A stretch of DNA of 55,319 nt, the filler included, from Jimgerdemannia flammicorona (taxonomy: Eukaryota), in NCBI GenBank assembly GCA_003990765.1. It is 2 parts of 2 records of this genome, joined end to end, with 100 filler letters (N's around TTAATTAATTAA, not from the genome) between each part and the next. Parts side by side here need not be neighbours in the genome. Positions count along the whole stretch, not along the records: positions 27,729 to 55,319 come from RBNJ01000619.1; 1 more part is not named here. The stretch is one strand, 5' to 3'. The notes under the pieces were generated by a model. That model had not been told where the DNA came from and did no database searches. It saw only the letters and a program-made list of their open reading frames with translations. The position numbers were made by a program, and so were the translations under genes. Below, piece by piece: positions 10,717 through 53,769 of the stretch. Position 1 is the first letter of the stretch. Each line of letters begins with the position of its first letter.

Positions 10717-10885
10717 TTTTTCAAAAATCCAACCTTTTTTTTTGAAAACTCAACCATTTTTGAAAATCCAACCTTTTTGAAAACCTGATCTTTTTGAAAA
10801 CTGACCTTTTTTGAAAACCCAACCTTTTTTGAAAACTTAACCTTTTTCAAAAACTCAACCTTTTTAAAATATAATCTTTTTGAAA
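10717..10885. repeat. ~17-bp tandem repeat (TTTTTGAAAACYCAACC-like), ~10 copies
   Basis: Repeated TTTTTGAAAATCCAACC / TTTTTGAAAACTCAACC / TTTTTGAAAACCCAACC variants. Confidence 0.85.
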
Positions 10886-20313: not shown

Positions 20314-20325
20314 ACTACCTGTGAG

Positions 20326-23300
20326 CAGACATCTCTCTGTGGTATCTCTCAGGTTATACAACTTTTGGAAAGCAACTACAATATTATTTTTGGAGAAAAG
20401 AGACTAGCAATATAGCATCTGACAGACAATCTGAGGTACGTACTGGGTAGGACAGCCTGAGCATGTTTAACTGGCAGCATATGGAGAGAGGCCCTGGCCT
20501 GAGGGGAGGTATGAGGGGGCTGCTGGCAGGTGGACATGGAAAGGAAGGAGGCAGTAGTAGAGGACAGAGATCTGGGAGAGTGAGCTTTGCTGAGATGGTA
20601 AAGAGGAGAAGGCAGACATCAGAGCTAGAGGGTTGGTTGAGGAAAGGCAAGGAAATAGAGAAGGTGACAGTACAGAGGGGGGTAGCCTCTGGCAGAGGAG
20701 GCAGTGGAGCTGGAGGTGTAGTGGCTGGGAGGAGTGTGATGGCTGATGGAGATGGGACTGCTAATCTGGAAAAAATCCAGATGTGACTGTGGATGATATA
20801 GCTGAGTGACTGAGGCTTGGGAGACAAGGAGATCTGGCAGATAGTGTGACAGGTCTGGCAGTGGCACCATTACTCAAGAAATTGATCTTGGCATTTGCAG
20901 TGACACTGTACTTCTAGGGCCTAGTAGTAATGGTGAAAATGGTACTGGGGCTGATTGCTAAGTAGGTGGCTGGAGCAGTGTCCATAAAGTTTTTGAAGGG
21001 ACTGGAGGGAGTGGAGGTGGGCTTTGAAGAGGCTGAGCCTTTGAAGGAAGCATTGAAGGTTGGATTAATAGTTGGGGAGGTGTGTGTTCCAATGGCATAA
21101 TGCCTGAAATAGAATCCCAGAGTGGTCCAACTGCTGGTAAAAGGAGTGCCTACAGTGATGGCAATGAAGATAAGAAGGAGAGTTGAGAAGGTCATGGCAG
21201 AGTATGGAGAGGTGGTGGATATTGGATTCAGAGTCTGGGAGAGGACCTCACTCAGGACTGAGAATGTGGATGTGAGGATTTGGCTGGCAGAGAAGGAGGC
21301 CACTGGGAAGGCAAGGGACTGGCCTTCTGGTATGGTCTGGGGGGTGATCATGTGTAAGGTAATGAGGGTGAAGGGGAGTGAGGAGGAGGAAGAGGACTTA
21401 TTGGAAGTACTAGAAGAGTTGAGTAGTGCAGTGGAGCAGTGGGCAAAGGCTTGGAGGGCCTTTGAGGAGGCAATGCACTTGGAGGTGGTGGATGGGAAGT
21501 GGATTCAAGTGAGCAAGGAGCAGTGGGAACAAGATCAGAGATAAAAGAGACAGAGGGAACTGCTGGTGAAGATGAAGAGTGGGTCTCAGAAGGATATGAG
21601 CAGGATGGTAGATATAGGGGGGGCCAAAGTGAGTGTCTGGGTAGATAAGGGAAGTGGGAGTGCTGGGAAGGGGACCAGTGAGAACAGGGAGGTGACTGGC
21701 AAGGACTTGTATGCAGATGGTACTCTGGAGATTTGGGATGAGACATGAGAGGACTCCCCTACCCCTACTCCCCTTATCAGGCAGGGCCCAGCTTCCTGAA
21801 GCAGGGTGGTGGAGGATGTGCCAATGCAGGGGGCCCAGTGAGTGTAATTTGGAGTTCTGGAGGTAGCAAAAGAGGGACAAGTAGTGGCAGTCAGGGAGGA
21901 GGAACTGGTAGATGTCCCAGAGAAGTGGAATGAGGCTGTGAGTGCTGGGGCTGATACCATGATGCTGGATGGTGGGAGGCCAGTGACCCCTGGAGGAAAG
22001 GAGATGGGGAATCTACTTTGGATGTGCAGGATGATGAACAACCTAGTGGCTGAGTGAGCTGGGAGAGGTGGATTTGAGGATAATGAGCGATGAGCATTGG
22101 GTGAGGATCCTACAGGGGGAGGGGGTGGTGATGGCATTGAAGGCAGAAATTCTTATAGTGTATCTGGAGGAGGAAGGCTATGAGGTAGATAAGGAGCAGG
22201 AGGCAGAGATGGTGGGAGTCATGGGAGAGAGGGCTGAATACTGCTGGACCAAGTGTCATAGATTGCAGCTCTGGCAGGAAGCCTGTCTGGAGTACTAAGA
22301 GGAATTCGAGGAGAAGGCAGATGGGGAGATGAATGAGCTGTTGGCTAGACTGGAGGCTCAGAGGGTTGAAGAGGAGGTGGTGACCACAGAACATAATCTG
22401 GACTTGGCATAGGAGGAGATGAATATAGAGTAGTAGGGAAAGCTTGATAATATACCATTCTTCACTATGAATAGTATAACTAATATTTTTTCTTTAAACA
22501 TAAATGGGTTATGGGGCACTTATTAATATAAGAACATTTTTACTTAGCTGAAGAATTGGAGGCTGATCTCTTCCTCTTGCAGGATGTCAGATGTGAGGAT
22601 GATTTGGATAGACTGGAATGGACGAAGGAGTGGGGAGGTGAGGTAGTCTGGAAGGGCAAGGTTGGGATTCTGGTGTGGAAAGACAGAGAGGAGATAAGAG
22701 ATATGTGGAGCTGGGGAGATAGATTGGTCTGAAGAGAGTGGATACACACAGGTTGGGAGCCAGTTATGGTGGGCTCCTGTTATTGCCCTACAGTATGGAG
22801 TGAGTATGTGAATTGGATGAAGGGCCTACAGGAGAGTGGAATTCTTGTAGAGGTTGGGGTAGATATGCTAGGTGAGAACTTCAATATGGTCTGAGACATA
22901 TTGAGGGATAGAACTGATAGAGGATGAGAAGCTGAGGGTTGGAGTGGAGGACTGGCAGCATGAGAGGAAGTGAAAAGACTGAGTGCTCTGGTGAATGCAG
23001 ATAGAAAATATTGGGGAGATAGAAGAGTATACACACACTGGGCTGGGGGCCTGGAGACAAGGATTGATTGGATTCTGACAGCCAGCTGCTGGGGCTTGGA
23101 TGTTTGGAAGTTGCTGGAGGTGGAATGGTGTCCTTGGTCAGATTATTGGGGGCTTTTAGGGCAGGGGCATCTTGGGGGGAGTGGGGATGGGCCTGGACAT
23201 TGGTGTCTCAATTCCTCCCTACTAGATGATAAGATCCAGTGGGATGAGTAGGCTGAAGACATTCAACTATGAGTGGAGTGCTGGAGGTAGGAAGGTGCCA

Positions 23301-25238
23301 CAGTTGGTATTTGGTGGATGAGGATGAAGGAGATGGCCAGGACCTTCTGGAGTGAGACTGGGAAGGAGACAGGGAAACAGAGGAGATGGTGGGTGAAGTG
23401 GGCTTCTAGTAGACTGTCTAGACTCTTAGAGGACTGGGCAAGACTGGTGACATTGGAGGGGGAGGAGGACTGGAGATTGATAAGGGTAAGAATGGAGGTG
23501 GTTGAGCTATAACAGGTGCTGCAAAATGAGGAAGAGGCAAGGGTCCAGGGTCTGGCAGTGCAGCTTCATTGACAGGGATTGGAGGAAGGGGAGCAGCCCT
23601 CAAAGTTTCTCACAAGAGTCCTTTAGGTGAGAAGAGTGCAACAAAGATGAGAGGGGGTGCTGAATGCTGATGGTACATTGGTGTATAGTGTGCAAGACAT
23701 TCTTGGATCATTAAAGGAGCATTGGAGTGGATTGTGGAGTGAAGAGGAGAGTGGGGCAGATACTGAGGACATTGACTGAGTATTGGAGGATTGGCACCCT
23801 ACATGAGCAGATGAGCTGAGTAACTTAGTAATACTGGTACAAGAGGAGGAGATCCACCAGATTCTTGCCATAACAACCTTGGGTATAGTACCTAGAGAGG
23901 ATAGTCTGCTCTGGGACTTCTGGAAAATGATGGTGGAAGTTCTAGGAGTACTGGGAGAGATGACAGCACTGTGTGATTGAATTCTACAGACAGGGAGATA
24001 GGTGGGGGAACAGGATCTGGGGCTGGTGATGTTGCTTTATAAGAACAAAGGAAGGTGAGAGAACTGGAAGAACTGGAGACCAATTATGTTACTGGATATG
24101 GACAGAAAGTTGGTTACCAAGGTGGTGGTCACAAGGTTGCAAAAGGTGGCCCAGCAAGTCTTGGGTAATGAGCAGAGGGGCTTTGTGAGAGGCCAGCTCA
24201 TCAGGGATGGCATAGCATGGGTTCATGGAGTTATTGAAGGGGTGCGAGCCAGTGGACTGGATGGGCATCTGGTCTTTCTGGACCAGGAGAAGACTTATGA
24301 CTGAGTGCAACAGGTCTGGCTGGTGAAAGTATTGGATAGAATTGGGGTCCTGCACTAGTTCAGGACAGTCATGGTCAGCCTTCTGGAAGAAAGTAGGACT
24401 GCACTCATATGTAATAGACACAGAGGGGTAGCATTTCCCCTGGGTAGGGGGGTGCTCCAGGGGGACCCACTGTCCCCCATCTTGTATGCTCTTTCTCTGG
24501 AGCCCTTTATGGACAGAATCAGGCAGAAGATAGTGAGGCTCTCTATCTTTGGCATTAGGTGGAAAGTAGGGGCATTTGCAGATGACATGGTGGTCAGCCT
24601 GGGATTAATTGCAGATGTTAGAAAGCTCAAGGAAATAGTGGAGTGGTATGAGATGAACTCTGGGACTAGGCTTAATTGGTATAAGTATAAAACAATGGTG
24701 TTAGACAATAGTCTGGTGAGAGGGGAGATTATTGGTACCATTGTCCCTGCTGGTGAGGCAGTAAGTACTTGGGTATTTATCTGTCAGTATATGGGTCAGT
24801 TCTGTTCAGACTTTAGTGGGAGCAGAGGGTTGGTATCTGAGAGGAGGCCCTGTGGAGTTGGGGGGGCTGCCAATTGTCTCTGGCAGGATGTGTTTTGATT
24901 CTGAACATCTATTGGCTACCAAAGTTATAGTATCTGGCTTATCATCTGGACTTCCTAGCTTGGGTGATGAAGTGATTGATGAAGCTGACCAAGAGATAGA
25001 TCTGGACTGGAAGGAGGAGTCAGATCAGCTGAGAGGTTTTGTCCTTACTGGTGGTGAGTGAGAGACTTGGGCTGGTTGACTTTCCTAAGAGGCTACACTG
25101 CTTAAGAGCATGGTGGCTGAAGAGAGCAGTGGAGTTGAGAGGGGGTGGTTGGGTCCCTCTACTGCAGAAAGTCTGGGAGATGAGATCTTCTCTGAGGGGT
25201 TCAACTGGTGATCTCCTAGCACTTGTTGGCCTTCAGAA
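20326..25238 (+). mobile_element. L1/Tx1-type LINE, copy C (5' end present, interrupted downstream of RT)
   Basis: 5'UTR and ORF1 (RVSFAEMVK); APE motifs (YTHWAGGLETRIDWIL, PWSDY, GPGHWCLNSSLL); RT motifs (FLDQEKTYD, GRGVLQGDPLSPILY, VGAFADDMVV); LGLVDFPKRL. Confidence 0.92.
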
Positions 25239-25251
25239 TACAGAACAATTG

Positions 25252-27628
25252 CAACATCTCTTTCCAGTACCATTCAGGTTATACAACCTTTGGAAGGCAC
25301 TTTTGACATCGTTTTCAGCAAGAAGAGACTAACAACATGACAACCAACAGGCAACCTGAGGTGCATACTGGGCAGGGCAGCCCAAGCACTTTCGACTGGC
25401 AGCAGGTGGGGAGGGGTCCAGGCCTGGGGGGAGGTATGAGGGGCCTGCTGGCAGGTGGACATGGAAGGGGTGGAGGAGGTGGTGGAGGATCAGGATCTGG
25501 GAGGGTAAGCTTTGTGGAGATGGTGAAGGGGAGACAGCAGGCGTCGGGGCTGGAGGGCTGGCTGAGGAAGAGCAAGGAGACTGAGAAGGCACCAGTGCTG
25601 GGGGGGGTGGCCCTTGGAAGGGGGGGTGGTAGAGCTACAGGAGTAGTAGCTGGGGGGGGTGTGACTGCTGATAGTGTTGGGACTGTCGATCTGGAAAAAA
25701 ATCCAGATGTGATGGCTGATGGCGAGGCTGAGTAGCTGAGGCTTAGAAGACAAGGGGACTTGGTGGATGGTGTAATGGGTCTGGCGGTGGCTCCGTTACT
25801 CAAGAAATCGATTTCGGCATTCGTGGTCACACTGTGCTTCCAGGGCCTGGCGGTGACGGCAAAAATGGTGCTGGGGCTCATCACTAAGCAGGTGGCAGGT
25901 GCAGCATCTGTGAAGTTTTTGAAGGGACTAGAAGGGGTGGAGGTGGGTTTTGAGGAGGCGGCACCGCTGGAGGAGGTGCTGAAGGTTGGATTGGTGGTTG
26001 GGGAGGTGTGTGTTCCAATGGCGCAGTGCCTGAAGTGGGACCCCAGGGTGGTCCAACTGCTGGTGAAAGAAGTGCCGATGGTGACAGCGATAGAGACAAG
26101 GAAGAGGGTTGAGGATTTCATGGCAGAATATGGCAAGGTGGTGGATATCAGGTTCAGGGTCTGGGAAGGGACCTCGCTCAGGACTAGTGATATGGATGTG
26201 AGGATTTGGCTGGCTGGGAAAGAAGCCACTGGGAAGGCAAGGGATTGGCCTTTGGTGATGGTCTGGGGAGCAATTCTGTGTAAGGTGACAAGGGTGAAGG
26301 AGAGTGAGGAGGAGGAGGAGGATTTACTGGAAGTACTCGAAGAGCTGGGGGGTACTGTGGAGAGGCGAGCAAAGGCTTGGGAGGCTTTTGAAGAGGCAAC
26401 ATACTTGGAGGTGGTGGATGGAAAGTGGATTCGAGTGACCAAGGAGCAGTGGAAAAGGGCTCAGGGGCATAAGAGGCAGAAGGAGTTGCTGGCCAAGCTG
26501 GATAGCAGACCACTGGGGGAGGTGAGCAAGGTGAAGGACACAGGGGGAGCTGGAGCGAGTGTCTGGGCCGGCGAGGGGGAGGGGAAGGACAAGAAGGAGG
26601 CGGGGGAGGACAAGAAGAAGGCTGGGAAGGACCCGTATGCAGATGGTACACTGGAGGTGTGGGAGGAGGACTGGGTGGGCTCCCCTACCCCTACCCCTCT
26701 CATCAGGCATGGCCCGGCTTCCCGGAATAGGGTGGTGGAAGATGTGTCAATGTGTGGGGCCCAGAGGGTACAATTTGGAGTTCCTGAGGTAGTATATGGG
26801 GGACAGATGGTGGCGGCTGGTGAGGAGGAGCTGGTGGATGTCCCAGAAGTATGGGATGAGTCTGCAAGTGCTGGAGCTGACACCACAATGTTGGATGGAG
26901 GGAGGCCAATGACTCTGGGGGGGAAAGAGGTGGGAAACTTGCTTTGGATGTGCCAGATGATGAATAACCTGGTGGTAGAAGAGTTGGGGGAAGTGGACTT
27001 GCGAGTGATGAGTGATGAGTATTGGGCAGGAATACTGCAGGGGGATGGCGTAATGAAGGCATTGAAGACAGAAATTCTTGCAGTGTACCTGGAGGAAGAA
27101 GGGTATGAGGTGGATAAGGAGAGGGAGGAGGAGATGGCAGTTGTTGCTGGAGAAAGGGCTGAATACTGCTGGAATAAGCAGTATGGACTATAGCTCTGGC
27201 AGGAAGCATATATTGAATACTGAGAGGAGTTTGAGGAGAAGGCCAATGGAGAGATGAATGAGCTTCTGGCTAGATTAGAGGCTCAGAGGGCAGAAGAGGA
27301 GGAGGTGGCTGCGGAACATAATTTGGACAAGGCACAGGAGGAGATGAGCATGGAGCAGTAGAGGCAGACTGATGACATCACATATATCATCAATATGAAC
27401 AGTACAACCAACATTTTCTCTTTGAACATGAATGGGTTACAGGGCACTTCTCAATGTAGGAACATTTTTACTTAGATGAAGGGATTGGAGGCCGATATCT
27501 TCCTCTTGCAGGATGTCCGGTGCAAAGATGACTCTAATAGATTAGAATGGACGAAGGAATGGAGAGGTGCAGTGATTTGGAAGGGCAAGGTTGGGATTTT
27601 GGTTAGGAAAGGCAGAGGGGAGAAAAAA
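25252..27628 (+). mobile_element. L1/Tx1-type LINE, copy D (least decayed; 5'UTR, ORF1 25337-27361, start of ORF2 from 27395; runs into gap)
   Basis: ORF1 stays in one frame for 675 codons with only three internal stops (TAG 25733, TAG 27191, TGA 27221). It retains CpGs. ORF2 begins MNSTTNIFSLNMNGL..EADIFLLQDVRC (APE N-terminus). Confidence 0.92.
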
Positions 27629-27728
27629 NNNNNNNNNNNNNNNNNNNNNNNNNNNNNNNNNNNNNNNNNNNNTTAATTAATTAANNNNNNNNNNNNNNNN
27701 NNNNNNNNNNNNNNNNNNNNNNNNNNNN
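27629..27728. other. Artificial scaffold/contig linker: 44 N + TTAATTAATTAA + 44 N
   Basis: Exactly 100 nt with a palindromic six-frame stop cassette at the centre. True gap length and adjacency across it are unknown. Confidence 0.97.
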
Positions 27729-28584
27729 GCATGCCTGAGAACCCAATGTATGTACAAGGCCACGCCCGAGCCGAATAGAATAGCCCCTGCCACCCCAAAG
27801 AGAATGACAGGCAAAGAAAAAACCCTCATCAAAGCACAACACGGTGGGTAGGGCCTGGTTCTCCCAGTTGAGGTGAGTAAAGGACTTATACGTGAGGCGG
27901 GAGGAAACCCCCAATACCCACTTAGTGCTATATCCATATTCAGCATAGTCCAGATAGCCCCTCACTAGTATAAATACCACCTCCCCCAGACCTCAGAATC
28001 TCAGACTGAAATACACATGAACATTCCTGAATACTTCTCCACAGTATTTCTTTACACAACTACTCCTAGTATAGCAATATCATGAATAGCAAATAAACCT
28101 ATTTAATAATCCACAAACTACTCTTAAGTAAATCTGCTCCCTATTAGGTCCCACTCCTAACCCTGTCATGAAATTTCCTAATTGGGTATTGTCTGCAGCA
28201 ATACACCAATTCAACTAAGCTGGTCTTAGTTTCTTGAACTTTCTGAAATATAGAAAATCCTGAACATCCAGAACTAGTCTGAAAAAGGACTTTGGTTGAG
28301 ACATCAACCCGATCTTGAAATCAATAAGTGTAGAGGAAGTACTCTATACAAAATTAATCTTGAGCATAAGAAAATAGTCTTCCAAAATATCCAGAACTTC
28401 CAGAAAACCCTTCCAGAACTATGTAATGGTTACCCTAAAAAGCAACCCTCTTACATACTGTCCTGTAATAGATATAGCAAACCACACTAAAGTAGAGGGG
28501 GTAAAGTTAGAGAAAAAGGGACCCAGATAGTTGCCCACTAATACCTTATGCTGGTATGATAGCACAAATGTGACTAGATGTCTG
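27729..28584 (-). mobile_element. Fragments of the second non-LTR family (related to 5400-6593): young 3' segment plus older 5' end
   Basis: 27729-27920 aligns with ~5655-5850 but retains CpG. 28457-28584 resembles ~6470-6593 and begins CAGACATCT on the minus strand. Confidence 0.65.
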
Positions 28585-30633: not shown

Positions 30634-33600
30634 TTACTCCTCATCTCGTTTCGTGTCATCTACGTTCATCTCATCTTCCCCGGGCACAGCCTTTATCTCA
30701 CCCTCCGTTTCTCCGTCAACGTCCATCTGCGCGGGTCCTATCACCGCCTTTGCCTGCTGCGACTTCACATACTGAAGTTGCTCTTGCATCATCTGGTACG
30801 CGTATGCCCCCATGTGCGCGACGTCGCTGATCTCGAAAGGGTCGCCGTGGTCGTCAGCCTACAGCACGACATGACATGGGTATAGGGAATAAGCAAGTAA
30901 TTTTGATACCAAAGATAGAGCAATTGCGAAGTTCGACTGAACCAAGATACCAACCTCACGTGTTGCAGGCCACATTTCGCCAATCTTGAGCTGCAATTTA
31001 TCCGGCCTTGCTACCAACTTGTTGAACGTCGGCATCAACTCGTAGCAATTCTCGAACAGGGCCCGTCGACAGAAAACGTACAGTCCAAGTCGTGCACGAG
31101 ACATCGCCACAATTAGACGCCGGACATCACGGATGTGGCCGACGGATTTTGTGCGGACAAGAGAGAGAAGTATGTCTGATGATTGCAGACAAAAGAATTG
31201 AAGTTTAGATCGCTATGGTATTTGTGGAGCGGAATGATATATGTATAATTGTACTTACAATCATTCTGTTGACCCTGATACTTGTCGACTGTGGTCACTT
31301 TAGCCGGTCGTCCAAAGAATGGATTCCAAGCACAACGCCGATTCAATACATCCCTTATCAAAGCTTTCTGACCGTTATATGTGGTCAAAATCGTGATCTT
31401 CTCAGCAGGGTACCTTTTGGTACAAATCCCAAAATTAAGTCAGCAATTAATTTTCAGGATGTGAACATAGGTAGTCAACAGGTTACGGGCAAATTTAAAT
31501 GCAACTTACCCGATCAGTCGCATGTATTGATATACCGCAACAATGTATTCCGCCTCACCCAGATTCTGATAGAAATACGGCACGGGCTCGCTTTCCCCAA
31601 CGCCATTATAATCTCCCACATTAACGAGCTGATAATCGTAGATGAACCCTGCGTTCGCCTTTTGATACTCGTCCAATTGTGAGATGATGGCAAGATCGCC
31701 GAGTTTCTTGTACCGCCAAGTGTATAGTTTGGCGATTGATGACCTTGCACGCCCCTACAAGCCACGAAAAATTAATCGTACAATGAATGAACAGCCTATC
31801 GTTTTGGAAAACCTGATAATCTTAAAACATACTTGAGCATCCAAATCCACCGTCGGTACACCCAATCTTACGAATCGTGTGAACAAACTCTGTTCCATGT
31901 TCCCGTATTGTTGGAATGCCATGTTTTTTACGACGGGCGGCAGCTGGTTGTGATCTCCAATCATGATTACTCTCTTTAGTCGACTCCGGCCATCTTCTGT
32001 TTCTTGTAGTAACAGTGGAATAAACGTTTCGACCTCCAATATTTGGGCCGCTTCTTCCATAACAATGTTGTCGTACTTGAAGTTCAGACCAACCAGTTCC
32101 CGCCGCTATGGAGGAGGGGAAGACCAGCGGTGGTAGACGTTTAGAGGAGTTAAGGATATATAAAGGAATTTCTTTCGTAGCAAACACGGCCAAAATATTA
32201 CCTACCTTGAGAGCAGCATGTGTACATGTCATGGCAATAATCTTCGCCTCTTTCGTCAACAGATAATTCGCACGGTCGTAGCCTGTACGCAACAGTTCAA
32301 ATGCTCGTATCTCCTCTAATTCTGTAAATGTCTTCTTTAAATGCCGGAAGCAGCCCTCAACGACGTCCAATGCTTCCTCGAAGGTCATCTCTGGCGTGAA
32401 CAACGGTTGCGGTGCGTTCGAGAAGAATTCGGTAAACGGGAATCCATCTCGAAGTAAATCGACCGATTGTGCTTGTCGGACTTTGTCGATATAAGGTTCC
32501 CACCGCGACAGGACGTGATACAAATAGAAATATCCGGCAGTTTCACATGTGTATCCATGATCCCCTGGGATTTCCAACGATTTACCGAGTCGGCCGACTT
32601 CATCCAAGAGCGCCAGGCGCCTCTCCTAATAAACGATTTTATATGGTATCAGAAAACGCACACCGAAATCCGAGAGCTTGATAAAAAACGGAACGTTATC
32701 GAGGAGAAGAATGCTCACCAGGAAAGAGTTCACACGCCCATACTTGCTGAAACTCATCTCCGTGTTCAGCTCCTCTTCTCCGTGACCAAGACGCAACAAA
32801 TGGCGCTGATCGATATCCAGTGCCATGATTTTTTCAAACAGCTGGTTCAGCGCCTGATTACTATGCGTCACAAGTAAAGTGTGTTGATCCGGAAAGTTAT
32901 GATACAGGTTCGCAATGATTTGCACGGCAACGTCTGTCTTGCCCGTGCCCGGAGGACCTACTACTAGAGTAAGTCCAGGGTTGACACCGGAATGGATGGC
33001 CTCAGCTAATGGATAGAAGCATCGCAGACCGAGGCGTGAGTGTTGGTTGGTATTCAATGAATGAAAGATAGTGAGATATAAATGCCACCAAAGGCATTGA
33101 GAGTTACCTTGAACAGGCGTAAACTTGACCGAATTTTTTCGCGGCACATCCTCTGGATACGGGCCCATATTCGGAACAGTGTACGTCTTGACCACCAGTT
33201 GATCATCATTGTCTTTTTTGGATCCATTTTCAGCCACCTTGCCACCGACTTTTCGTTTCTTTGGCCGTTCCGGTTGCTTTTCGGTGGACGAAGATTCCGG
33301 AAATTCGACCACGTACGGCGGATCTAAGATCTTGTCGGACTTTGCTGTAGGGACAACTTTCTATCTCATACAAGAAGAGATATAATTATCATTAGGGCCA
33401 ACAAGAACAATGTCCTTCGCTCATATGAAGTTTATATAGATACCTTTTCTGGGAAAGATTCTCGCAAATGATCCCAATCCAAAAAAGTGTCTCTGAAATT
33501 GATCTCTTTCACGCGGTTAGAAAGCTTTGAATAATGGGCGCTTCCAGGATCTCCGTAGCCGAGAAACACTTTTTGTAGCCAGTCCGGAACAACGAGGTCG

Positions 33601-36600
33601 CTTTGCATCAAGTCGCGAATGGTCTCGAGAACAGCCTTGAAATTGTTTTCCTATAAAATATCAGATAATATCAAATGTGTGGATGTTAAAACTAAAGTGT
33701 TCGACGGGGATGTAAGAATGCGGATACAGAAAAAGAATACGTGGATAGAGGGCTTACCTTCGGTTTTCTTCGAACAAGGACGTTGAACGTTTCATGTACA
33801 TCCTCTCCCTCCTTGCGGTTATATCGGTCCATGTCCATCTACATGCCGACGGAATACAATATGCGATGAGTGAAGTTAGTTGTTTATTGGAGACCTAAGG
33901 CCGCAATACATAGATTATAACACTGACCTTGTACTGGTTCGGATCCAACCAGACCCTCAACGTTCTATTCGATCCGCCCAATTTGGGATTCTTGTCGTCA
34001 ATCCGGGGTTTCCCGACTTCATCAATCGGCTTACCTAGTTCAAGATGTAAGCGAGCGTATCACATGAGCATATCGCCTTTCATAGCGCGGAGTCATAATG
34101 GAATCAGGAATATCTCTCACCATCCGATCCAATGAGGTCCGCGATCTCGCAACCTCTGACGTATTTCAATCCAAAATGCTGTCGGAACTCAGTGTCATCC
34201 TTGTATCGATCGCCGCTCGCGTCATGCGCTTGGATCGTCAGCAGAAACATAATGTCGTGTTGCCTTAGAGAATCCCATTCACCTTTGATCGAGTCTGTGA
34301 AGCGACCCAAGTTAAATGTGATCTGTGGGTGTGAACAACGGAATGTTAACGGGTCGGACAGTCGGAGAAGGTTGGAATGGAACGACATCATTTCTCAAAC
34401 CCCTGCAGAGCGACTTAACCATAGTAACGGTAAATACAAAAGAATCTTACATCGGCTTTTACATGTGCAGGCTTGTTTTCTCCCAAATTCGGTTTTGCGA
34501 CATCGACGATGCTACATCACCGAGGTATGAAAGGTACTATTAAGACCGCCTGTGATGGATTTCTGTTTCTATCGCATCTCCCCCAAAGGCCCTTACCTAA
34601 AATTTTGGATTGACACCGCCATCCTCGCCCACCCAGAGAACTCGGTCTTACGATCTGGATAGGTTAATCTGGGCGCAAGGCGCTTCACCACATCCTCGAT
34701 GTCCTGTCGGATCTGGTATGTGCTTTCCAATCGAAAAAGATTAAAATTCCGCAGCAGGTAGTCGTGAATGGTTAGGAACTGCAGGTTCAATTTCGGCAGC
34801 GCTAGCGGCGTATCTCCGGAATAGAACTGCGTCTTGACAAGTGTGTCGTTGAAGAGGGTGAACTAAGTCGAATAAGAGAGATCTAGTTAGTAAACAGCGG
34901 CTACGATAAAATGCACAACGGTATTGCAAGCACGAAGCACACCTCGTCGGGATACAGCGGCATTGCGTTGATGGCCTCAATCTGACTGGTCCGTTTCTCA
35001 AACTTCTGCACCAATCCTTCCACCAGCAATTCACGTTTATCGACTCCCTGCACATCAACCAACAAGTCACTGCGTATCCCCAGATGATCGCAAAGTTTTA
35101 CAAGATCACCGTCATCCAATTGCTTGAATTGCTTCAATAATTCCGGGCGACGCTCGATGGAAGCGAGATTCGACAGAGCGATATCCGACAAAGAATTTTT
35201 GAAGTGCTTGAACGCGATGAGCTGTGGAAAGCGATAAGACGTGGTATTGATAAAAGCGCTCAAGATATTTCACAAACGGAAAATGTGCGGCGGTATTTGT
35301 TCGCCTACCTGCAATTCCATCAACCTCCCACAATGCAACTCCGTCATCTGCGAATCCGTCAGGGCCAGTCCAGTATGGTCGTTAATTTCGAATCCAGCGT
35401 AGAACCTCAGAATCTCCAACAACTGATTAAATAGATTGCTGTATAAGCCAAAGAAAAAAGAGCGGTTCAAATATTAAACAAAATGATCGAAATAATACTT
35501 GTCAGGAGGTTTGGGTATCAATGATAAAGTCGTGAAAAACACACCAACCTGCCCTGCTTGCGCTTCACAATTGGCGCCATCTTGCAAAGTATCAACACTT
35601 GATGATCATCTAAAAGCATATTGAAATGTCGCCGTGTCGGCAGCTGTGCCTCTAGGTCGATGAGGAATTCCAGAAAACGTTCGCAGTAACGGATCGAGTC
35701 TGTGGGGGCTGGTCCTGTTGATGACAGCGAGCAGATGCGTGAGAATCCGAATATCTCCTAAAACAACGCTACCAACATAAAAAAAAATTGAATACACTAT
35801 TTACCATCTTCAGATTCAGGGATGGTGTATAGAATTTTGATGAACTCTTTCAACATCACGCTGAGCCACGATCGTTCGAATTCCATTTTCTTTCGCGTAG
35901 CTTGGTCTAGATTTGCGTAGAAGTAAATGCCAGATCATATCGGCCAGGTAGTCATTAAAACATTGACGTACAAAGAGGATAGTTATGGTAGAACACAAAA
36001 TCAGACGTACCACTACCCTCGAATTTCTTTTCTATTGCGTTCCACATCTTCTTCAAAGGTGAGTAGTGTTTAAACTGTTGCTCTCTCCTCGATGGATTTG
36101 CAAGGCAATGCCATATGGAAAGCGATACGAGTCTGTGGGAGTACGGGCAGGATAGATAGTGTCAATGGAGCGCCAGGGATACGGTTACTCAGACGCATGT
36201 ATGTATGTCTACAATGTCTAAAAACCACTTACCTCATGCATTCCGATCGTACGATGGGGTTCTCCAAACTCTGGAACGCATTGATCATAAACACCAACAA
36301 AAATCGGCGTACGTGCAAAGTTAACTCGTCCGAAGTCAGATCGTCCACAAGCGGCGAAACCATAATGTGTAGGACGCGCGTGAAAAACCCATAAAATTTG
36401 GTGGGATTGGACATAAACGCATCTGTTGATGTTAAGAAGTGAAACCGAATTTGTGAGAAACACGAATATGATTGACCGAGTTCTATAACAACGGAGGCAA
36501 ACGACAAATGACATACCCCATGGCGATACTCGCTGTCGAAACTTCTCATTGATCATGAGGACGATGGAAAGCACGTAAACAGAAGAGGCATCCGTCTCAT

Positions 36601-37009
36601 TGAAATTGGGCCATAAGTACTATACGGTAGATTGGCAGGAGGGGTTTATAAGTATTTTCGTCACCTGTTTCGTAATTCGTAATGGTCAAATATAATACTA
36701 AAGTTGGGCCAAACCCTGCGCTACAAGAATAAGTCGTGTACAGAAATGACAGCGTACCTTTTCCAAGTACTGACTAAACTCGAGGAGCATAATCTTCCTA
36801 ATGTTGAAGTTGGTCTTGACCAACTCGTCCCTATAAATGCTCTTCACGATGCCAAAGTCCCAACTGACGTGGCCTTCTTTGTTGGACCATAACTTTTCGG
36901 CCACGATAGAGACAGAATCAGCCTGAATCTCGGCGAGAGTTGGATACTGAACGCCACGGCTGGACTCGGTGGAGTTAGCATGGAGGGGGAGGGTTGATTT
37001 CCTATCCAT
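30634..37009 (-). CDS. AQR: Intron-binding spliceosomal RNA helicase Aquarius (Cwf11/IBP160), many exons
   Basis: [54 protein letters not shown]-loop [89 protein letters not shown]; acidic last exon ending KRDEE* at 30634. Confidence 0.96.
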
Positions 37010-37662
37010 CGCAATGAGGAGAGACGCGTGTTTGTGAATGTTTACAAGACAAAACTATGTGGCGTCCGTGACATCACAGTCTACGGTCACATGACATAAT
37101 GGAACTGACAGTCACCGACGAATTCTTCCCATAACTTGTATAACAGGCTCTTCGTAATTTGTAGAATTAATATTGACAAGAGCGTTTTTTGTTGACATGA
37201 TAAAGTAGAGTTAAAATAGCACGTTTTGTAGAAATACTAGGCATAGCCTAACGATCTCCTGGAAAAGGGATGTTTGGCTTCACATAAGAATCCAAAAAAA
37301 TAAAATCATTCGCACCGTTAATATGGCTGCATTCCCATGACATCCGGTGGATAGCTCGCCCTTGCAGACCTTTGACAACATCGACGACATAGGCAGGACT
37401 CAGATCGCGTACAAATGCTGCTACCAGAACATCTACGTAACTATGTCTTATGGATCAACTCCGACTCAGATGGCTATCCAACCCCAACATCTATATTCTT
37501 GACACCGATAACCCTGCGGCGATCACTTGCAAGGTGAATCAGTGACTCCAGGCAGCGAAGAACGGTAGCTTTTGGTGTACAATGATGCCGACGACAACCT
37601 AGGCCAGGCCCAAATCTATAACCTGCTTCTTTCATCAGAAAATACAGAAAGAAGAAACCCTC

Positions 37663-37663
<1 letters not shown>

Positions 37664-37731
<68 letters not shown>
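37664..37731. repeat. 68-nt poly(A) homopolymer followed by GAAAAA-like units
   Basis: Read directly from the sequence. Confidence 0.9.
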
Positions 37732-37733
<2 letters not shown>

Positions 37734-39257
37734 AAAAGAAAAAGAAAGGAAAAGAACTGGATGGCCGTTCCCAATCTGCAAGTCATTGTGGTCGATCCAA
37801 CCAGTGGTGTTGACCCAGTAAACGTTACCACGCTTGTAGTAATTGAATTTCTTTGACGTAGATGTGGTTTGGTTGCGTCGTCCTGGTAGAAGCCGTCTGC
37901 AATTATGTGAAGGGAGACGGAAGAATCCATGTTAACATTAAATGGATGAGAATAAGCTGCAAAAATAAAAATAAAAAAAAGTCACCCCAAGGTGTGCATA
38001 GGCTGTGGCTTACAGCTCTTGAAGTTCCAGGGAGCTAAAACTTGTTGACACCAGTTGCCGTTCTCGGTCTGGCGGAAGAGATAGGACAGGGAGGAAGCCT
38101 TCAGTAAGCCGGCATGAATACGCAACGAAATAGGAATGAAATGTATAACGTACCAGTACTGGAATGATTGCCCCCCCCAGCACAATTGATCCGTCTATCG
38201 GAATACAAAAAAGGTAAACTCCATGAGCATCACTTACAACCTTTACAAGCCTCCAAAGGTATATGTGATAATGAAAAAATTTACCAAACAGATTCCTGGG
38301 TACGCGATCTGATTATCTGTATGATTTCGTCAATAGAGAAACTATTAAAAATCAATGCCCATAGTTACAAATACCAAGCGTTGAAAGGTAGGAAAAAAAA
38401 AAAAGAAAAAAAAAAAGAGATCTCACGTTCAACACCGAAGTACTCGCAGGTCAACCAGGCGTAGGAAGAGAGACCTCTTCTGCGGCATATTGACCCTAAG
38501 ATCGGAACAAATAGAATAAGGAGTAGATAAATGAGTATGGTCGACGGGATGGAAATAAAATAAATGGACATTATAAAGAAAGTACGTACAGAGAGAGAGA
38601 GTCGCCGATGATTGGTACTCAGCAAAATAAAATAATGAATAAACGAGTGACGAATATAACAGCCACAATCCCACCCTGGCATTCCAACTGACCACCGAAA
38701 AATTAATATAATGCTTCTTCCCATCCAGACCGCTCGCCAACAACACTTCAGTCCCTGACGTGACATTCAGGTATTGTCAGTTATTCGAATCGATCTTGAA
38801 CCCGACCATAGTGGGGCTAATTGTTTGCGAGCCAAAGGCTAAACCAAACTTTGATAGAAAAAGTAAGCGTTACGATTTGGCAATAGTAAATCGGTTAGGA
38901 AAGAAACGAAGGGTGAGTGCGGAGAATACGTAAGTGATTGGTGGGAAGAAATAATCACCTGGCTACTTTCAAAGTATATACGTCTTGAAGCCGGGAACAG
39001 CTGCAAATGTCAACGAAGAGGACGGTCTCGAACTAAACATTAAACATCCAAACAATAATTAACTGACAAAGAACTCGCTACTCACACCACTATGACGTAT
39101 GATTGCTATCCCGCCGTCCTGTCCAATAAATCTCCTCACTATTCGGCGAGACAGTCTTCTTCGCCAGGAGGGTTGTGATGAGGGTTGAGGTGAGCATTGT
39201 TGGTGTTTGTAGGCTCACCTGACAAAAATGTGAGCTGTGAGGTATGTGAAAGGTGCA

Positions 39258-40856
39258 GATCTCGGAGTATGTCAGAACTATGTGAAGCAATGGGGTGCGA
39301 CTGCGCAATGGAATCAAGCTCACGATGTGTGCGTGTTCGCTGATTCCCCTCCTGTTCATTTCATTTCTCAGGGAATAGCATCGGCGACGAGGGGGCATGC
39401 GCCCTAGCCGAGTGTTTGAAGCAGAACACGGCCTCGACCTCGCTGGATCTCGGAGGTATGTCAAAACAAGCAATGGATTGCAGCTGCGCAATGGAATCAA
39501 GCTCACGATGTGTGCGTGTTCGCTGATTCCCCTCCTGCTCATTTCATTCTCTCAGGGAACAGCATCGGCGACGAGGGGGCACGCGCCCTAGCCGAGGGGT
39601 TGAAGCAGAAAATGACCTTGACCTCGCTGGATCTCGGAGGTATGTCAGAACTGTGTGAAGCAATGGATTGCGGCTGCGCAATGGAATCAAGCTCACGATG
39701 TGTGCGTGTTCGCTGATTCCCCTCCTGTTCATTTCATTTCTCAGGGAACAGCATCGGCCACGGGGGAGCACGCGCCCTAGCCGAGTGTTTGAAGCAGAAC
39801 ACGACCTTGACCTCACTGGATCTCGGAAGTATGTCAGAACTGTGTGAAGCAATGGGGAGCGGCTGTGCAATGGAATCAAGCTCACGATGTGTGCGTGTTC
39901 GCTGATTCCCTTCCTGCTCATTTCATTTTCTCAGGGAACGGCATCGGCCACGAGGGGGCACACGCCCTAGCCGAGTGTTTGAAGCAGAACACGACCTTGA
40001 CCTCGCTGGATCTCCAATGTATGTCAAAACTGTGTGAAGCAAAATGGGGTGCAGCTGCGCAATGGAATCAAGCTCACGATGTATGCGTGTTCGCTGATTC
40101 CCCTCCTGCTCATTTTATTTTCTCAGGTAACAGCATCGGCCACGAGGGGGCACGCGCCCTAGCCGAGTGTTTGAAGCAGAACACGACCTTGACCTCGCTG
40201 GATCTCCAATGTATGTCAGAACTGTGTGAAGCAATGGGATGCGGCTGCGCAATGGAATCAAGCTCACGATGTGTGCGTGTTCGCTGATTCCCCTCCTGCT
40301 CATTTCATTTTCTCAGGGAACAGCATCGGCCACGAGGGGGCACGCGCCCTAGCCGAGTGTTTGAAGCAGAACACGACCTTGACCTCGCTGGATCTCGGAA
40401 GTATGTCAGAACTGTGTGAAGCAATGGGGTGCGGCTGCGCAATGGAATCAAGCTCACGATGTGTGCGTGTTCGCTGATTCCCTTGCTGCTCATTTCATTT
40501 CTTAGACAACAGCATCGGCGACGAGGGGGCATGCGCCCTAGCCGAGGGTTTGAAGCAGAACATGACCTTGACCTCGCTGGATCTCGGAAGTATGTCAGAA
40601 CTATGTGAAGCAATGGGGTGCGGCTGCGCAATGGAATCAAGCTCACGATGTGTGCGTGTTCGCTGATTCCACTCCTGCTCATTTCGTTTCTCAGACAACA
40701 GCATCGGCGGCGAGGGGGCACGCGCCCTAGCCGAGTGTTTGAAGCAGAACACGACCTTGACCTCGCTGGATCTCGGAAGTATGTATGTCAGAACTATGTG
40801 AAGCAATGGGGTGCGGCTGCGCAATGGAATCAAGCTCACGATGTGTGCGTGATCGC
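39258..40856 (+). repeat. Tandem array of ~190-bp exon+intron units (8 complete exons; 8 complete introns plus a truncated ninth)
   Basis: Near-identical introns of 100-108 nt (GTATGT...GCTGAT...YAG) alternate with 84-nt exons. Confidence 0.97.
39372..40778 (+). pseudogene. RI-like (NLRC3-type) leucine-rich-repeat gene fragment: eight 84-nt exons, no visible 5' end
   Basis: Exons 39372-39455, 39556-39639, 39745-39828, 39935-40018, 40127-40210, 40317-40400, 40506-40589 and 40695-40778 are each open. They encode xNSIG[D/H/G]EGA[R/C/H]ALAE[C/G]LKQNTTLTSLDL[G/Q], and all introns are phase 1. Functional status is uncertain. Confidence 0.85.
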
Positions 40857-41130
40857 AAGCAGGTGCATAGATTTGTACATTAAGGGTTTTGTGAGAAAAG
40901 CGACGCCCAGATATAGGCGAGCAAAGGCACTAATCATCTCCATTGAAGCTTTAAGATCACTTAATTACATAAATAGAAACAGTCAGGACGAAAACGGTTA
41001 CAACATCTGATAGAATTCCAGAACTTTCATTGCACATTTTTAATATAATGCCCTCTAAAGTATATACACCGCAAGTTTGCAAACATGGATGAAAAATCCG
41101 AATAAATGGATATGTATACAATTGATTGAG

Positions 41131-41398
41131 TTATATCCCGACAACCACATTCTTTAACTCGGCTAGGGCGTGTGCCCCCTCGTGGCCGATGCTGTTGTCT
41201 GAGAAATGAAATGAGCAGGAGGGATCGTGAGCTCGATTCCATTGCGCAGCCGCACCCCATTGCTCCACACAATTCTGACATACCTCGGAGATCCAGCGAG
41301 GTCAAGGTCGTGTTCTGCTTCAAACACTCGGCTGGGGCGCGTGCCCCCTCGTGGCCGATGCTGTTGTCTGAAAAATGAAATGAGCAGGAGGGGAATCA
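41131..41398 (-). pseudogene. Inverted 3' end of the LRR gene: exon 9 (41367-41284, 84 nt) and terminal exon (41198-41131, ends TAA)
   Basis: The minus strand reads NSIGHEGARAPAECLKQNTTLTSLDLR, then NSIGHEGAHALAELKNVVVGI*. The intervening intron lacks ~20 nt, including the GCTGAT branch motif. Confidence 0.82.
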
Positions 41399-42485
41399 GC
41401 TTGGTAGTCATTGTTCTACTCCAAGTACCCTCCCAATACAATCTTGTGCACGTTTCGCTCCCGCAACCGAGTAAGCTCCCAAGATTCTGTGCATTGTGCT
41501 GTGTGGTGTTTGAATTATCCAACAAAATACCCGTGGGATTGTCACGTTATCACGATGACGAAGTAACCCGATATTATTTCTTTGAGGTTATGAAGTTTAG
41601 TGCTCAAACGGAGTAAAAAACTATAATTCGATTTATCTGAATCAAGAGCTTAATCCTCAAAATCGGATCCAATCGAACCGAATCACGCCGCAACACCCAC
41701 GCAAACTCCGCTGGACGACTTTTTCTCGCAGCGATATTAGCACAAGGAGACATCGTAAAGGTGCGGGCCGAATGCGAGCAGCCGTTGACGCAGTACGAAC
41801 TTCTGACCTATGGTGTTCTGTTTCCCCTAATGCAGGTCATATGCTTTCCCTGGAAATGTAATCACTAATTAAAGCAAGCATGAACGAAGAGTTTTCTGAG
41901 AATTTTTGATACGATACAAATCGTTCTCATCCTATCGGCATGAAATGACTTTGTCTAAACTCCGCATCAGTTTGCCCGATATTCTTATGGTTACCTCTGA
42001 CTTCGTCGATAACGGCGGGATTCCAAAACTCGGACATCGGGCATACGCAAATTCGTTTGGAAAGATTTTCTCAGTGACCGAAACTAATCTATATTAAAGC
42101 GAGCGATATTTAACCTGCCAATCGACTGATTTCCGCAGCAAATTATGTCGGCATGACAGTTTGTAGTGTATAAACTCGTGGAGTGTTTTCCAGCAGGTTA
42201 GATCGTTTGGCAATCAATGACACCAAAGTCGATTCACCGGATGATGAAACCTTCGACACGCACCAACAAACGCATTTGATGATACCACCGCCATATGCCT
42301 TATTACACCGACAAAAATAAATAAAACGGAATACTTTGTTACGCTATAAAGCTAAAGACCGGGATTTAAAATATCTTAATATTATTTTCCGCCTTGGCCA
42401 ACGGTCGATGGTATTATTCTAGATTCATGGAAATCTTACAATATGGCGAAGTACAGAATTCAAATTCCGTAGGACCAGGGCCAGC

Positions 42486-45400
42486 TTAGACACGACGGAC
42501 AGCCTTGTTGTAATTAGGACTCTCTACATCATTCACTTTAATACCGCCACAGTAGGCACCCAAAATCTCGATGTTGAAGTTTGCTAACTCACTGCTATTG
42601 GCGTTGAAAGAAATTACGCCAATGGCCACGGTGTTTTGCCCGTTGTGCTTAATAATGCCTTCAGGGACAGGGAAGACGGTCTGAGGGCCGAGCGCATTAG
42701 CTGTGAGACAGGAAAATGATGAGTCAGTTTTTTTTTCTTTCGGGACAACTCGTATATATATATATCAATATATTATTAGAGAATAACTTACCGTATTTGC
42801 CAAATTGCCATCCGTTAACATAAAAGATAGCGCGATATTCCTTTGACTTGTCGTCGGTGAAGCGGAAAGCAAGTGGGACGTCGTGACCCGAGGGAATGTT
42901 GAGGTTGAATGTGGTACGGAACCAAGCGACACCAGGTTGCTTGAAGTTGTACGGCAAAGAGACTGATTGCCATTTGGAGTCGCTGAATCCAGGAAGATGC
43001 CATCCAGCACGTTCGCCGTAAAGGCCACCCTCGTTATACGGGCCTCTCACTTTATCGACGATATCTTCGCCACCGAGGTTGCCCTGAACCTTCCATTTAA
43101 TAGCTGTATTGTTACCGCCAACCAAGAGAGCCTTGCCAAATCCACGAGCGGACTTGAATTGATCATCCACGTTCCAGTCTTCATCGTGGCCTGAGGTGAG
43201 CAACAAGAGGGAAATCGAGTTTTCTCCCGATTTAACTTGGCCCTTGGAGAAAGTATACGTGGCATTCGCAGAAGAGGAGGTTGCCGGGATTGGAGTGCCA
43301 CCAAGGTATTCTCCGTTCAACCAAGCAAGGTACCCAGATCCATTACCACCTTGACCTAGCAATTCGAGACCGGTGATTGCGGAAGGCCCGTTGAATTTTC
43401 CGCGGAACCAGATACTTCCGGTATGGTAGCCATAATCATCAGCGTAGAGAACAGGCAAAGTTTCGGGTTGCGTGATGCTGTTTGTAGTCGAATGGTTGGC
43501 AACGATCCAATTACTGTCGTCAAAATTGGGGTCGGTTTCAGGGGAGGCCCAGTTGAACTTCCACTTCGCCTTCAACAAATTCGGCACAGTAATCTTGGCA
43601 GGGCCAGCGAGTTTTCCGACCAGTGTACCGTACAGAGTCGTTTGAACGGAGATCTTTTCGCCATTCCATGTAACGGTTTTCACAGTCTCAGGTGCCACAA
43701 TCTCGATAGTCGTAGTAGCATTGGTGTCACCACGCAAAGCCAAAGTAGTTCCCTTCAATGAGGCACCACGCACCAGATAAGGACCATAAACGAGCACGGT
43801 CTGCTTGTCGTCCACCTTGGGCGCCCAGAACTTGATGGCGTCATCATACCCAGTAAGGTAGAGCAAAAGATCAGGTTCCGCAGCACCGGTGATAACCACT
43901 GGCGTGATGCCCTGATGTTTATAGTTGAGTCTCAAGGTTGTGCCATTGACGCATGTAGTCACGGGGTTGTTGCCAAAGGATTTGACGGCGGGTTTGGCGC
44001 TCCTATTGACTTTGAGCGCGGTCTCGCCATCTTCGCCTTCAAAAGCGTAGAGCAAAGCGACATTGCGTTTACCGATTTGGGCGTGGGTGAAAATTTCGTT
44101 GGTAGAGTACACCAAGTGGTGGGAACCGAAATCGTAACCAGTAACAATAATCTTTGAGTCGCGTCCATCCAAAGTAATAGCTGTGCTAGCTTGTTGAGGA
44201 ATGGTGAAGGTGCCATCGGTGCTGTTGACGTTGAGGTGGAAGGTATCATGCACCAACGATGAGCTGTTTTGGTGACGGACAATGTAGAACTGTGTTCCAG
44301 TGTAGACGTCTTGCAGGGTGTCAACACGGATGTCGCTATTGTCAGCCGTTGAGCCGTTAAACCAAAAGGTGGTAGAAAACGGTTTGACAGTTTGAGTAAA
44401 GTGTCCTTGAAGCTTGAGCTCGCCGTACTTGTACGGCAATTGACGTGACTCGGAAATACCGCCAGCGTAATCGTAGGAAGTGTAGACACCAGGGTAACCG
44501 ATGTTACCCCAGTTCGTACCGCCATAAGTCATGTAAAGATTCAGCATGGTCACCCCTTGGGCGTAGTTGTTCTTATAGAAGACTCTTTCAAATTGATAAT
44601 TGATCAAAGTTGCGCATTTTTCATAGCCTACGCCACCCCAGGGATCGAAGGCACCGCCTTGGAATTCGGGAATGTAAAGGGGCTCGGTAGGATTGAAGGA
44701 TTCGTGGTATCCTCTCCAATAGGTTTGAGCTGAGCCCGGCCAGATGTTGGGGTTCGTGCAGTCGAAGCCTTGAGGGTATGAGTCGAATCTGCAAGACAAA
44801 TATGAAAATATAATGAATAACAAGGGAATAGTATTATAATTGAACCCTGTAGGTTGGTAATGTTGGCCTACCCATAAATATCGACAGCACCTACACCGTG
44901 TCCAAAAGAGCTGTTAGTCCAAGCATCGTTGAAAGTAAGGGGGCTGGTATTAAAAAAATAAAACAAAAAACAAAAAAATAAAAATCAATATTGATCACAT
45001 CGATTCAGCTATTGCAGTCCTTGTAATGAACTTGAAATACATACACGATCACCCCATCTGCGCGGAACTTGTCTTCTAGGGCTTGCATATAACTTGGCTA
45101 CGAGAAACAAACCCAATACGTATAAGGAACCGAAACAACATTACATCGGAATTTTCAATTTGCTCATTGGCCGCTACTGACATCTTGATGGAGGTCGTAT
45201 TCGTTTTCTGTGAAGTAATCATCCATTAGACTCGTGAACACAATGCCCCCGTGGGGACGCACATATACACACCCACACATACACACATATTGAAGATAAA
45301 CTTACCGACTTGATTCAAAATGACTGGCCCTTTATTGGTGATCTGGTTCTTGGCGATGTAAGGGTCGATGGCGGACAGCCATTCAGTCCAAGCAGCAGTA

Positions 45401-49718: not shown

Positions 49719-50726
49719 AACCAGCATTGCGCAACGTCCGGGTTCAACGTCGATTTCCGCACCGAAAGTTCAAAGCACGACCCAGAAAGATCCGCATATT
49801 GCTGAGGCTGCGCTGGCAATGGCTCCAATTCTGTGCCGTCTAGGAGAAACATTAACCGACATCTGCAGGATCGTCGTTGTATTGTTTATCCTGTCCGTAG
49901 CGGAATTTGAATAACCCCAAAACAAGCAGTCGTGCCAGCGCTTGTTTGTAAGATCGCCGAATCTCGAGGCATCGTAGACGGGCCCTGTTCTTATCGATCG
50001 TGAGGGTGGCGAAATTGACGTCAATCAAGATCCCACTCCCCATCGCGTGCCCCCAGCATTTCGGGCATTTGCTGCGTATCTTGTCCAAAGGGAAAACTCC
50101 AGTTCGAAGAAAATAGACAGACAATAATTCTCAAGGTAGTGAGCTCGTTGATGTCAGACAACGCATCATCGGATTCTTTTAAAAAAAATATTATTTAAGT
50201 AATAAAAAAATAAAAATAAGCATGTCATTTCTACCCCACAAAATAAACCATGTGACCACGAATGCAATCTTGTGTAATCCTACGCATTTCGCTTATTTCC
50301 GCGTAGCCCGATTTGTCTCACTAATACATGAGTCGAGTCCACGTAGTTGACGGAAGGATTGTGATTGTATACTGATCTTTGATTTATATTGGAATTGACT
50401 GGTTTTAGAACCATGTAATATACAGCACTTTTTACAGAAATAATTCTGTTATCTTGAATGATCGATCTAAATTAGCAAAATCTCAAGTCCCTGGCTACCG
50501 CGCCGACAATTTTCCTGGTTCGCGTGGAGAAATTGTTTAGTGATTGGACAGGAGAGACAGTCAGGTGGTGTCGTCCCTCCGCGGAACATTTTCGAAAAAG
50601 TGACGTCGAACGTGGGCCCATAACATCAACAAACCGGATGTGCCGTGTGGAACTGAGTCATTTCCCACCCGTAGAACGATATCCACTGAACTCCCTGAAA
50701 CAACATTCGTCCTCAATTGCAACGAA

Positions 50727-51624
50727 ATGGTCAAGTTCTATCAACACACACATACCTATCAGTAAGTATTTCATTATACCTCTTTTCTCGGCAATTCTCT
50801 CCATGAAACTCCAACGCAATTACGTTTTCTCGCGAAGTGCCATCACCTCAATATTCCCAACTCAAGTATCTGTTTTCCAAGGCATCCCTGGCAGAACGTC
50901 ACTTATGCCTTTTGGCTACGGTACCCGAATCCATTCGCCTCCCACGTCATTGGAGCCGACGTTCTTGAGCGTTCTGTCGACCCCGTCACGGGTGTGCTGA
51001 GGACCACGAGACTCTTATTGAAGAGCGGCGTGCTGCCAAAGTGGGCGCCAAAGGGGGTACGTATGTGGCCTCTTGCTGATTGCTTGGAATTGCACGAAAT
51101 TGATGGTATAGGCAATAGCGGCTTTGCCAAGCATTAGAGTTGGGAGTTGAATTATGATTCCAATGCGACTGGCACTCATATGGAATTGTATCATAAATCC
51201 TCTAACCACCACCAACAGATCGTCAAGAGCCCTGAAACCTTCGTAATTGAGGAGTCGGAGGTGGACCCCAAGACGCACACAATGATCACGCGCACTAAGA
51301 ACCTGTCGCATGCGCGCGTTATGCAGGTCGAGGAGACCCAAATTGTCAAGCTATCGCCTGAGAACCCGGAGTGGACTACCGTCCGCACCGAGGCCCGTGT
51401 CATCTCCCGCTTCGGATGGGGTCTCACGCAACGGATCGAGAGGTTTGGAGCAAAGCGGTTCGCGGATAACACGGCGAGGGTACGTATATGTGACTGCTCA
51501 TTTCTCATGTTTTCCGCATGGCCTAATCTGCGATACTTTCCTTTTGGCCACCCAGGCACGCCAAGGCATGTCGTACGTCCTTGAGATGATCCGCGAGAAG
51601 CGATTATTAAGACCATCCATATGA
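50727..51624 (+). CDS. UPS1: PRELI/MSF1-domain mitochondrial intermembrane lipid-transfer protein (Ups1-like), 4 exons
   Basis: MVKFYQHTHTY / HPWQNVTYAFWLRYPNPFASHVIGADVLERSVDP..LRTTRLLLKSGVLPKW / FVIEESEVDP..TRTKNLSH..VEE / ARQGMSYVLE; canonical GT-AG introns. Confidence 0.9.

Positions 51625-52380: not shown

Positions 52381-53769
<1,389 letters not shown>

Follow-up and report, generated by a model that had tools for sequence, protein, structure and literature searches.

A 542-bp inversion in a 5'-truncated kinase-LRR fragment of Jimgerdemannia flammicorona, probably left by a one-off accident of break repair

The window analysed here is a 55,319-nt stretch of Jimgerdemannia flammicorona DNA composed of two contigs, C618 and C619, joined by an N gap at 27629-27728 (the TTAATTAATTAA spacer); the adjacency of the two contigs across this gap is probably meaningless, and the feature described below lies in C619. 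Three genes in the wider neighbourhood were given presumptive assignments: we take 30700-37010 (minus strand) to be an Aquarius-type helicase-like gene, 50720-51620 (plus strand) a PRELI-like protein gene and 52390-53630 (minus strand) a GAPDH-like gene. A very strong G-over-C skew (0.27-0.54) extends over some 17 kb at 11000-28000, adjoining a 7-kb AT-rich stretch at 4000-11000 (GC 19-35%) that contains short tandem repeats. The gene immediately to the left of the feature lies on the minus strand at 37750-39197 and is single-copy and intron-rich, ending at a long poly-A/T tract. Its probable start codon (39195-39197, minus strand) and the first base of the LRR fragment are 61 bp apart, and a TGA at 38779-38777 probably lies in the frame of this gene. 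An assumed likeness of this gene to SGNH/CE2 esterases found no support in Pfam, CE2_N or homologue searches. On the other side, the last exon of a beta-galactosidase gene (42486-42764, minus strand, BetaGal_ABD2) is transcribed towards the inversion from about 1.1 kb away. The 3' end of this gene and downstream non-coding DNA (41900-44066) form an old duplicate with C869:8241-9876 at 68-86% identity, the downstream part of which also occurs on C10911, C7455 and C28744.

Between these neighbours, positions 39258-40856 of the plus strand hold 8.4 copies of a 189-bp exon-intron unit with 92% matches. The array contains eight exons of 84 nt, starting at 39372, 39556, 39745, 39935, 40127, 40317, 40506 and 40695, each of which encodes one 28-residue RI-type LRR (Pfam LRR_6, above cut-off), and its introns are phase-1 GT-AG introns. 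It begins in the middle of an exon at 39258, the point of 5' truncation, where 9 nt left over from the end of an LRR exon (39258-39266, plus strand) stand one base short before the donor. It stops in the middle of an intron at 40856, ending in ...GTGATCGC, so that only the 5' part of this intron (40779-40856, plus strand) is in place.

The continuation of the broken intron, TGATTCCCC, was found to start at 41398 on the minus strand, without loss. The piece from 40857 to 41398 is flipped, and both its coordinates and its content had been correctly given in a preliminary description of this DNA, which reported a 542-bp inversion carrying exon 9, a terminal exon and a 3' tail. Placed in register, the broken intron measures 109 nt, against 100-108 nt in the seven intact internal introns. 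Its 3' part, from the branch motif to the acceptor (41368-41398, minus strand), is followed by the 84-nt LRR exon 9 (41367-41284), an 85-nt last intron (41283-41199), and a terminal exon (41198-41131) that reads LAELKNVVVGI and closes with a TAA stop, as in the paralogues. A family-conserved, UTR-like 3' tail occupies 40951-41130, also on the minus strand. The forward and inverted units form complementary arms of up to 177 nt with 92% complementarity, which is far above chance. Taken together, the ten exons make up one open LRR frame free of stops and with intact GT-AG sites. At the level of the assembled sequence, the inversion is real and as described.

The copy to which this piece belongs is best understood from its relatives. 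An own-genome search with the inverted piece returned 256 matches (150 of them listed, from 40 scored candidates), and the relatives for which upstream sequence exists have a common region of about 2 kb ahead of the array. On C3091 this region encodes a protein kinase, and in the relatives kinase and transitional exons lie upstream of the LRR array. The C3091 kinase exon matched the genome 130 times at E <= 1e-20, more than 40 of these matches being near full length with at least 64% identity. The nearest named relative of the paralogue kinase exon, at 58% identity, is an Endogone kinase-LRR protein, which makes an Endogonales fungus the probable host. This hypothetical protein, P0002 of Endogone sp. 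(769 aa), combines a kinase with LRR_6 as the paralogue in this genome does; P0002 has the kinase, whereas the window copy is the LRR tail alone.

While the RI-type LRR_6 repeats, the family terminal exon and the tail are all present in the window copy, tblastn and blastn searches of the window found neither a kinase domain nor the 5' exons. The copy is a 5'-truncated fragment and not a full member of the kinase-LRR gene family, and since it starts mid-exon and has no kinase part, re-inversion would restore nothing. Where the preliminary description spoke of an LRR gene, the flipped LRR exons and stop therefore stand but the gene does not. Such headless copies are common in the family: seven of ten other contigs showed no kinase over the 205-7216 bp of upstream sequence examined, the remaining three having too little upstream sequence to judge. 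In a tree of the terminal exon and tail, the window copy grouped with C32052, C17296, C3091, C5678 and C15155 with modest support (84/94) and an end branch of 0.031; three of these five nearest copies (C15155, C32052 and C17296) are on contigs with no kinase upstream.

The exons of the fragment have decayed only slightly. Three rare radical changes at conserved LRR positions were noted, found in 2, 2 and 1 of 471 paralogue exons; exon 9 carries a conserved-position Leu>Pro that is present in one of these 471. The inverted units also have private letters, including a 19-mer that occurs once in the genome. Nevertheless, a mutation load at core positions above that of the paralogues was looked for and not seen, the nine window exons having 3 changes against 256 in 471 kinase-linked paralogue exons. 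The slight decay points either to recent lesions or to a fragment that has been kept. The last intron has lost 20 nt including its CTGAT motif, a loss present in 0 of 211 paralogue contexts. We considered whether this intron was dead and rejected the idea: CTCAC now occupies the branch position at the same distance from the acceptor as CTGAT had, and splicing may still be possible.

The orientation of the family was surveyed in stretches of 79 other contigs, a sample picked by LRR, tail or kinase hits. DNA matches to the unit were obtained in 75 of these (77 when protein queries were added), amounting to about 806 exon matches, and mixed strand orientation was seen in 0 of the 79 contigs. In the 33 contigs where exon and tail are both present the two are always co-oriented (33/33), which fixes the ancestral orientation. 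The inversion is unique among the sampled relatives.

The two ends of the inverted piece differ. At the intron end the break is flush, falling inside the CTGAT motif 33 nt ahead of the acceptor, so the cut through a branch motif reported earlier was borne out, as were the GC dinucleotides flanking both breakpoints (40855-40856 and 41399-41400). Because of these, the limits of the inversion can slide by 2 nt. Four nucleotides from the break lies a T>A change that none of 211 intron contexts in paralogues shares. The claim that the inversion is precise holds for this end alone; the other end is less clean, in that family homology runs from 41398 down to about 40951 and stops there, and the remaining 94 bp (40857-40950) are unique in the assembly and have no homology to the paralogue tails. 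These bases may be native flank or captured filler, and their end overlaps a palindrome, AAGCTT (40946-40951), at the edge of the family homology.

Several short matches were noticed at the junctions. AAGC, the first four nucleotides past the left break (40857-40860), is the reverse complement of GCTT, the first four past the right break (41399-41402), forming an inverted duplication exactly at both breakpoints; a 4-nt inverted match of this type arose in 0.6% of random pairs of positions (1185 of 200000). Immediately ahead of the fragment, the host sequence ends in AGGTGCA (39251-39257), which recurs at 40861-40867, across the forward array; a 7-nt match was found in 0.12% of 5045 control 20-mers per target, six targets having been tested. 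The start of the right flank (41399-41411, plus strand) is identical at 12 of 13 positions to a motif situated about 45 nt further down the paralogue tails, a likeness that may be due to chance as 33 of 1500 control 20-mers scored equally high. All of these micro-matches were spotted in hindsight, and none of the models needs every one of them. Neither an uninverted nor an empty site was recovered: own-genome DNA searches returned each unique flank once only, a metagenome scan for the uninverted allele gave just two chance 21-nt matches in GC-rich DNA, and the old duplicate of the beta-galactosidase region on C869 stops short of the junction.

We consider it likely that the inversion is a one-off repair accident in a non-functional relic of the kinase-LRR family. 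One break would have been flush, inside the intron, and another would have lain 3' of the gene, staggered by 4 nt and subsequently filled in; the piece would have been rejoined backwards via end joining, leaving AAGC and GCTT as an inverted duplication. The missing kinase part, the commonness of headless copies, the lack of mixed orientation in the 79 contigs and the three rare radical changes speak for this reading, as do the breakpoint duplication, given its rarity by chance, and the T>A change so close to the break. A comparable route has been described in Drosophila, where end joining of staggered breaks is proposed to produce inversions (Ranz et al. 2007, PMC1885836, in the part of the article available). 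The parallel there includes the lack of long inverted repeats at the ends, an inverted breakpoint duplication, and one staggered and one flush break. However, the duplications in that portion of the article measure between 46 bp and 1.9 kb, in inversions of chromosomal scale, whereas here 4 nt, 542 bp and possible filler are involved, and a duplication so far below the 46-bp minimum speaks against the staggered-break model. The relic reading in turn has to accommodate the facts that all ten exons are open, that GT-AG sites are kept and that core changes are no commoner than in kinase-linked paralogues.

This accident could have taken one of two forms. In the simpler, two breaks produced the inversion and the 94 unique bases are old native flank, an account to which we would give something close to an even chance. 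The other is a local shattering with multiple breaks, in which the kinase half and the neighbour's promoter were lost and the 94 bases were captured as filler; the AGGTGCA repeat across the forward array, the AAGCTT at the edge of homology and the likeness of the right flank to the paralogue tail speak for it, and we regard it as only somewhat less probable than the simple form. In either version nothing is switched, and the most that could be produced is a shortened transcript lacking a stop. The event had previously been proposed as one-off and inactivating: the former agrees with our analysis, and the latter is doubtful because the copy is also without its whole 5' part. Two further candidates were tried. 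Twin-primed retrocopies are marked by intron loss, a poly(A) end and pieces that point away from each other, and this origin was rejected since the introns are kept, the junctions have no poly(A) and the pieces point towards each other. A GATCT target duplication was weakened by one paralogue whose tail homology extends over GATCT.

An artefact of assembly or library preparation, through chimeric reads or a misjoin, has to be weighed in a repeat-rich short-read assembly that consists of 35,354 contigs for 231 Mb and in which many arrays end at contig ends. We nonetheless think this improbable. At each breakpoint, well within a 27.6-kb contig, repeat is joined to unique sequence, and the two breakpoints are reciprocal to the base with 2-4 nt in common; joints of this kind suggest that repeat collapse could not have flipped the piece; moreover, the inverted units carry their own letters, namely the genome-single 19-mer and the 20-nt loss seen in none of the 211 contexts. 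Less probable still is an inversion that can be switched on and off or vary in length, as the preliminary description had suggested. Site-specific invertible switches are bounded on both sides by inverted recombination sites of at least about 12 bp, yield a working gene in one orientation, show both orientations in one cell population and depend on a dedicated recombinase. The intron broken without loss would suit such a switch; but no recombination-site-like repeats were found at the ends of the inversion, where GC alone flanks both and is all that is shared in a way suitable for re-inversion at the breakpoints. There is also no kinase or start for a switch to turn on, the family shows no recurrence (0/79), and each unique flank is single-copy in the assembly. 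A site-specific switch is thus unlikely. In principle, homologous exchange between a forward and an inverted unit could flip the terminal exon back into the forward direction, placing it behind 1 to 8 repeats; the forward exons share 75-79 of 84 nt with the inverted exon 9, including uninterrupted identical stretches of 22-47 nt. This likeness would be a weak recombination substrate, and given a headless copy the rare re-turning of the terminal exon would be expected to change nothing. With ends that share 2-4 nt, no intact gene and no recurrence in 79 contigs, the proposal of a switch is not upheld.

The same description raised the prospect of fold-back dsRNA directed against the LRR family, in which a transcript through both arms would fold back, be diced and dampen the kinase-LRR family in trans. 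The potential to fold is considerable: 40450-41420 gave -574 kcal/mol (z -37.7 vs 20 shuffles), and of the 522 21-mers in the inverted piece, 77 pair perfectly with the forward array; 58 of these are exact matches to paralogue exons, distributed over 35 of 40 kinase-linked loci. The host genome has a Dicer_dimer gene and Piwi domains on nine contigs by domain matches, and the beta-galactosidase gene 1.1 kb away points at the locus. Hairpin transgenes silence genes in Mucor, according to the accessible part of PMC3720535. Against this, a stem is the automatic outcome of inverting part of any tandem array, and the fragment has no promoter or 5' exon of its own. Folding potential and RNAi genes are accordingly present, as had been claimed, but transcription across both arms is not supported. 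An endogenous hairpin locus acting in this manner is, in our view, hardly probable, and we are equally doubtful that the inversion made the headless fragment a natural hairpin gene, a newborn family-wide silencer in an early-diverging fungus whose small RNAs would tune a large family of candidate sensors in trans.

Two probable RNA runs bear on this question. Exons of the neighbour genes were matched with 0-1 differences in 10 of 11 such pieces listed, and the runs are therefore probably from this species. Family LRR exons are heavily covered in them and spliced exon to exon, contig depth being a poor measure of this cover. The tail contigs listed carry the letters of paralogues (15 changes and 7 gaps in one, 8 and 7 in the other) and not those of the window copy, and among the pieces and joints listed none crosses 40856/40857 or 41398/41399. 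No piece listed covers 40857-40950, and cover is absent in bins 37068-39203 and 41607-41873. None of these gaps bears on expression, and the individuals sequenced may lack the inversion allele. A joint from 39366 to 41161 on "opposite strands" in X2 was rejected as evidence of fold-back because a normally spliced paralogue gives the same. At 41334 in X2, 243 of 247.5 depth is without the family letter, but one of the 471 paralogue exons has the same Leu>Pro.

On our preferred reading, that of a relic struck once by a repair accident, this locus would be a small, well-preserved record of a fast-turning kinase-LRR family that breaks and scatters fragments: an ordinary kind of event, well preserved. 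Precise microinversions between human and chimpanzee are likewise ascribed to break repair with very short homologies, though in the portion of PMC8755829 available they span 17-33 nt and have flanking inverted repeats of 3-75 nt, compared with a flanking match of 2 nt here. The ROCO/LRR genes of Ectocarpus (Zambounis et al., PMC3341825, available part) also have one same-phase repeat per exon and splice-intact LRR exons on the non-coding strand. In that part of the paper, reverse-strand exons recur, at 19 ROCO loci and at 13 of 46 other loci, inside LRR-domain introns; here one locus has them and none of 79 others does, and this one is a headless fragment whose stop and 3' tail were carried off. 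Among the 79 contigs at least, our census thus shows no reverse-strand exon shuffling of the Ectocarpus type in the kinase-LRR family. Another non-coding inverted repeat able to yield trans-acting small RNAs is the Teosinte Pollen Drive hairpin, whose expression, siRNAs and target are demonstrated in the available part of PMC11390486, whereas only folding potential is seen here. If transcribed, the hairpin, whose 21-mers match 35 of the 40 loci with a kinase, would offer a testable example of a silencing locus derived from a gene-family pseudogene in Mucoromycota. A search at the level of titles and listings turned up no article dealing with inversions in the kinase-LRR genes of Endogonales, and the word "leucine" is absent from the accessible text of PMC12574304. 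The LRR arrays of Tetrahymena resemble the present one in their clonal tandem exon-intron units with one repeat per exon and uniform phase, their exons being of 90 nt and phase 2 as opposed to 84 nt and phase 1 (PMC6564038, in the text available, from which the word "inverted" is absent).

Other copies of the family in this genome also have unusual arrangements. C15155 and C32052 share an identical 205-bp start of unrelated DNA, followed by nothing of the LRR gene except its terminal exon and tail, and C32052 contains a second fragment that begins mid-intron. The headless arrays of C3206 and C7101 have a common upstream sequence, and by eye their introns appear shifted from C to T and from G to A relative to the family. 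On C6120, two tandem kinase domains lie upstream of one LRR array.
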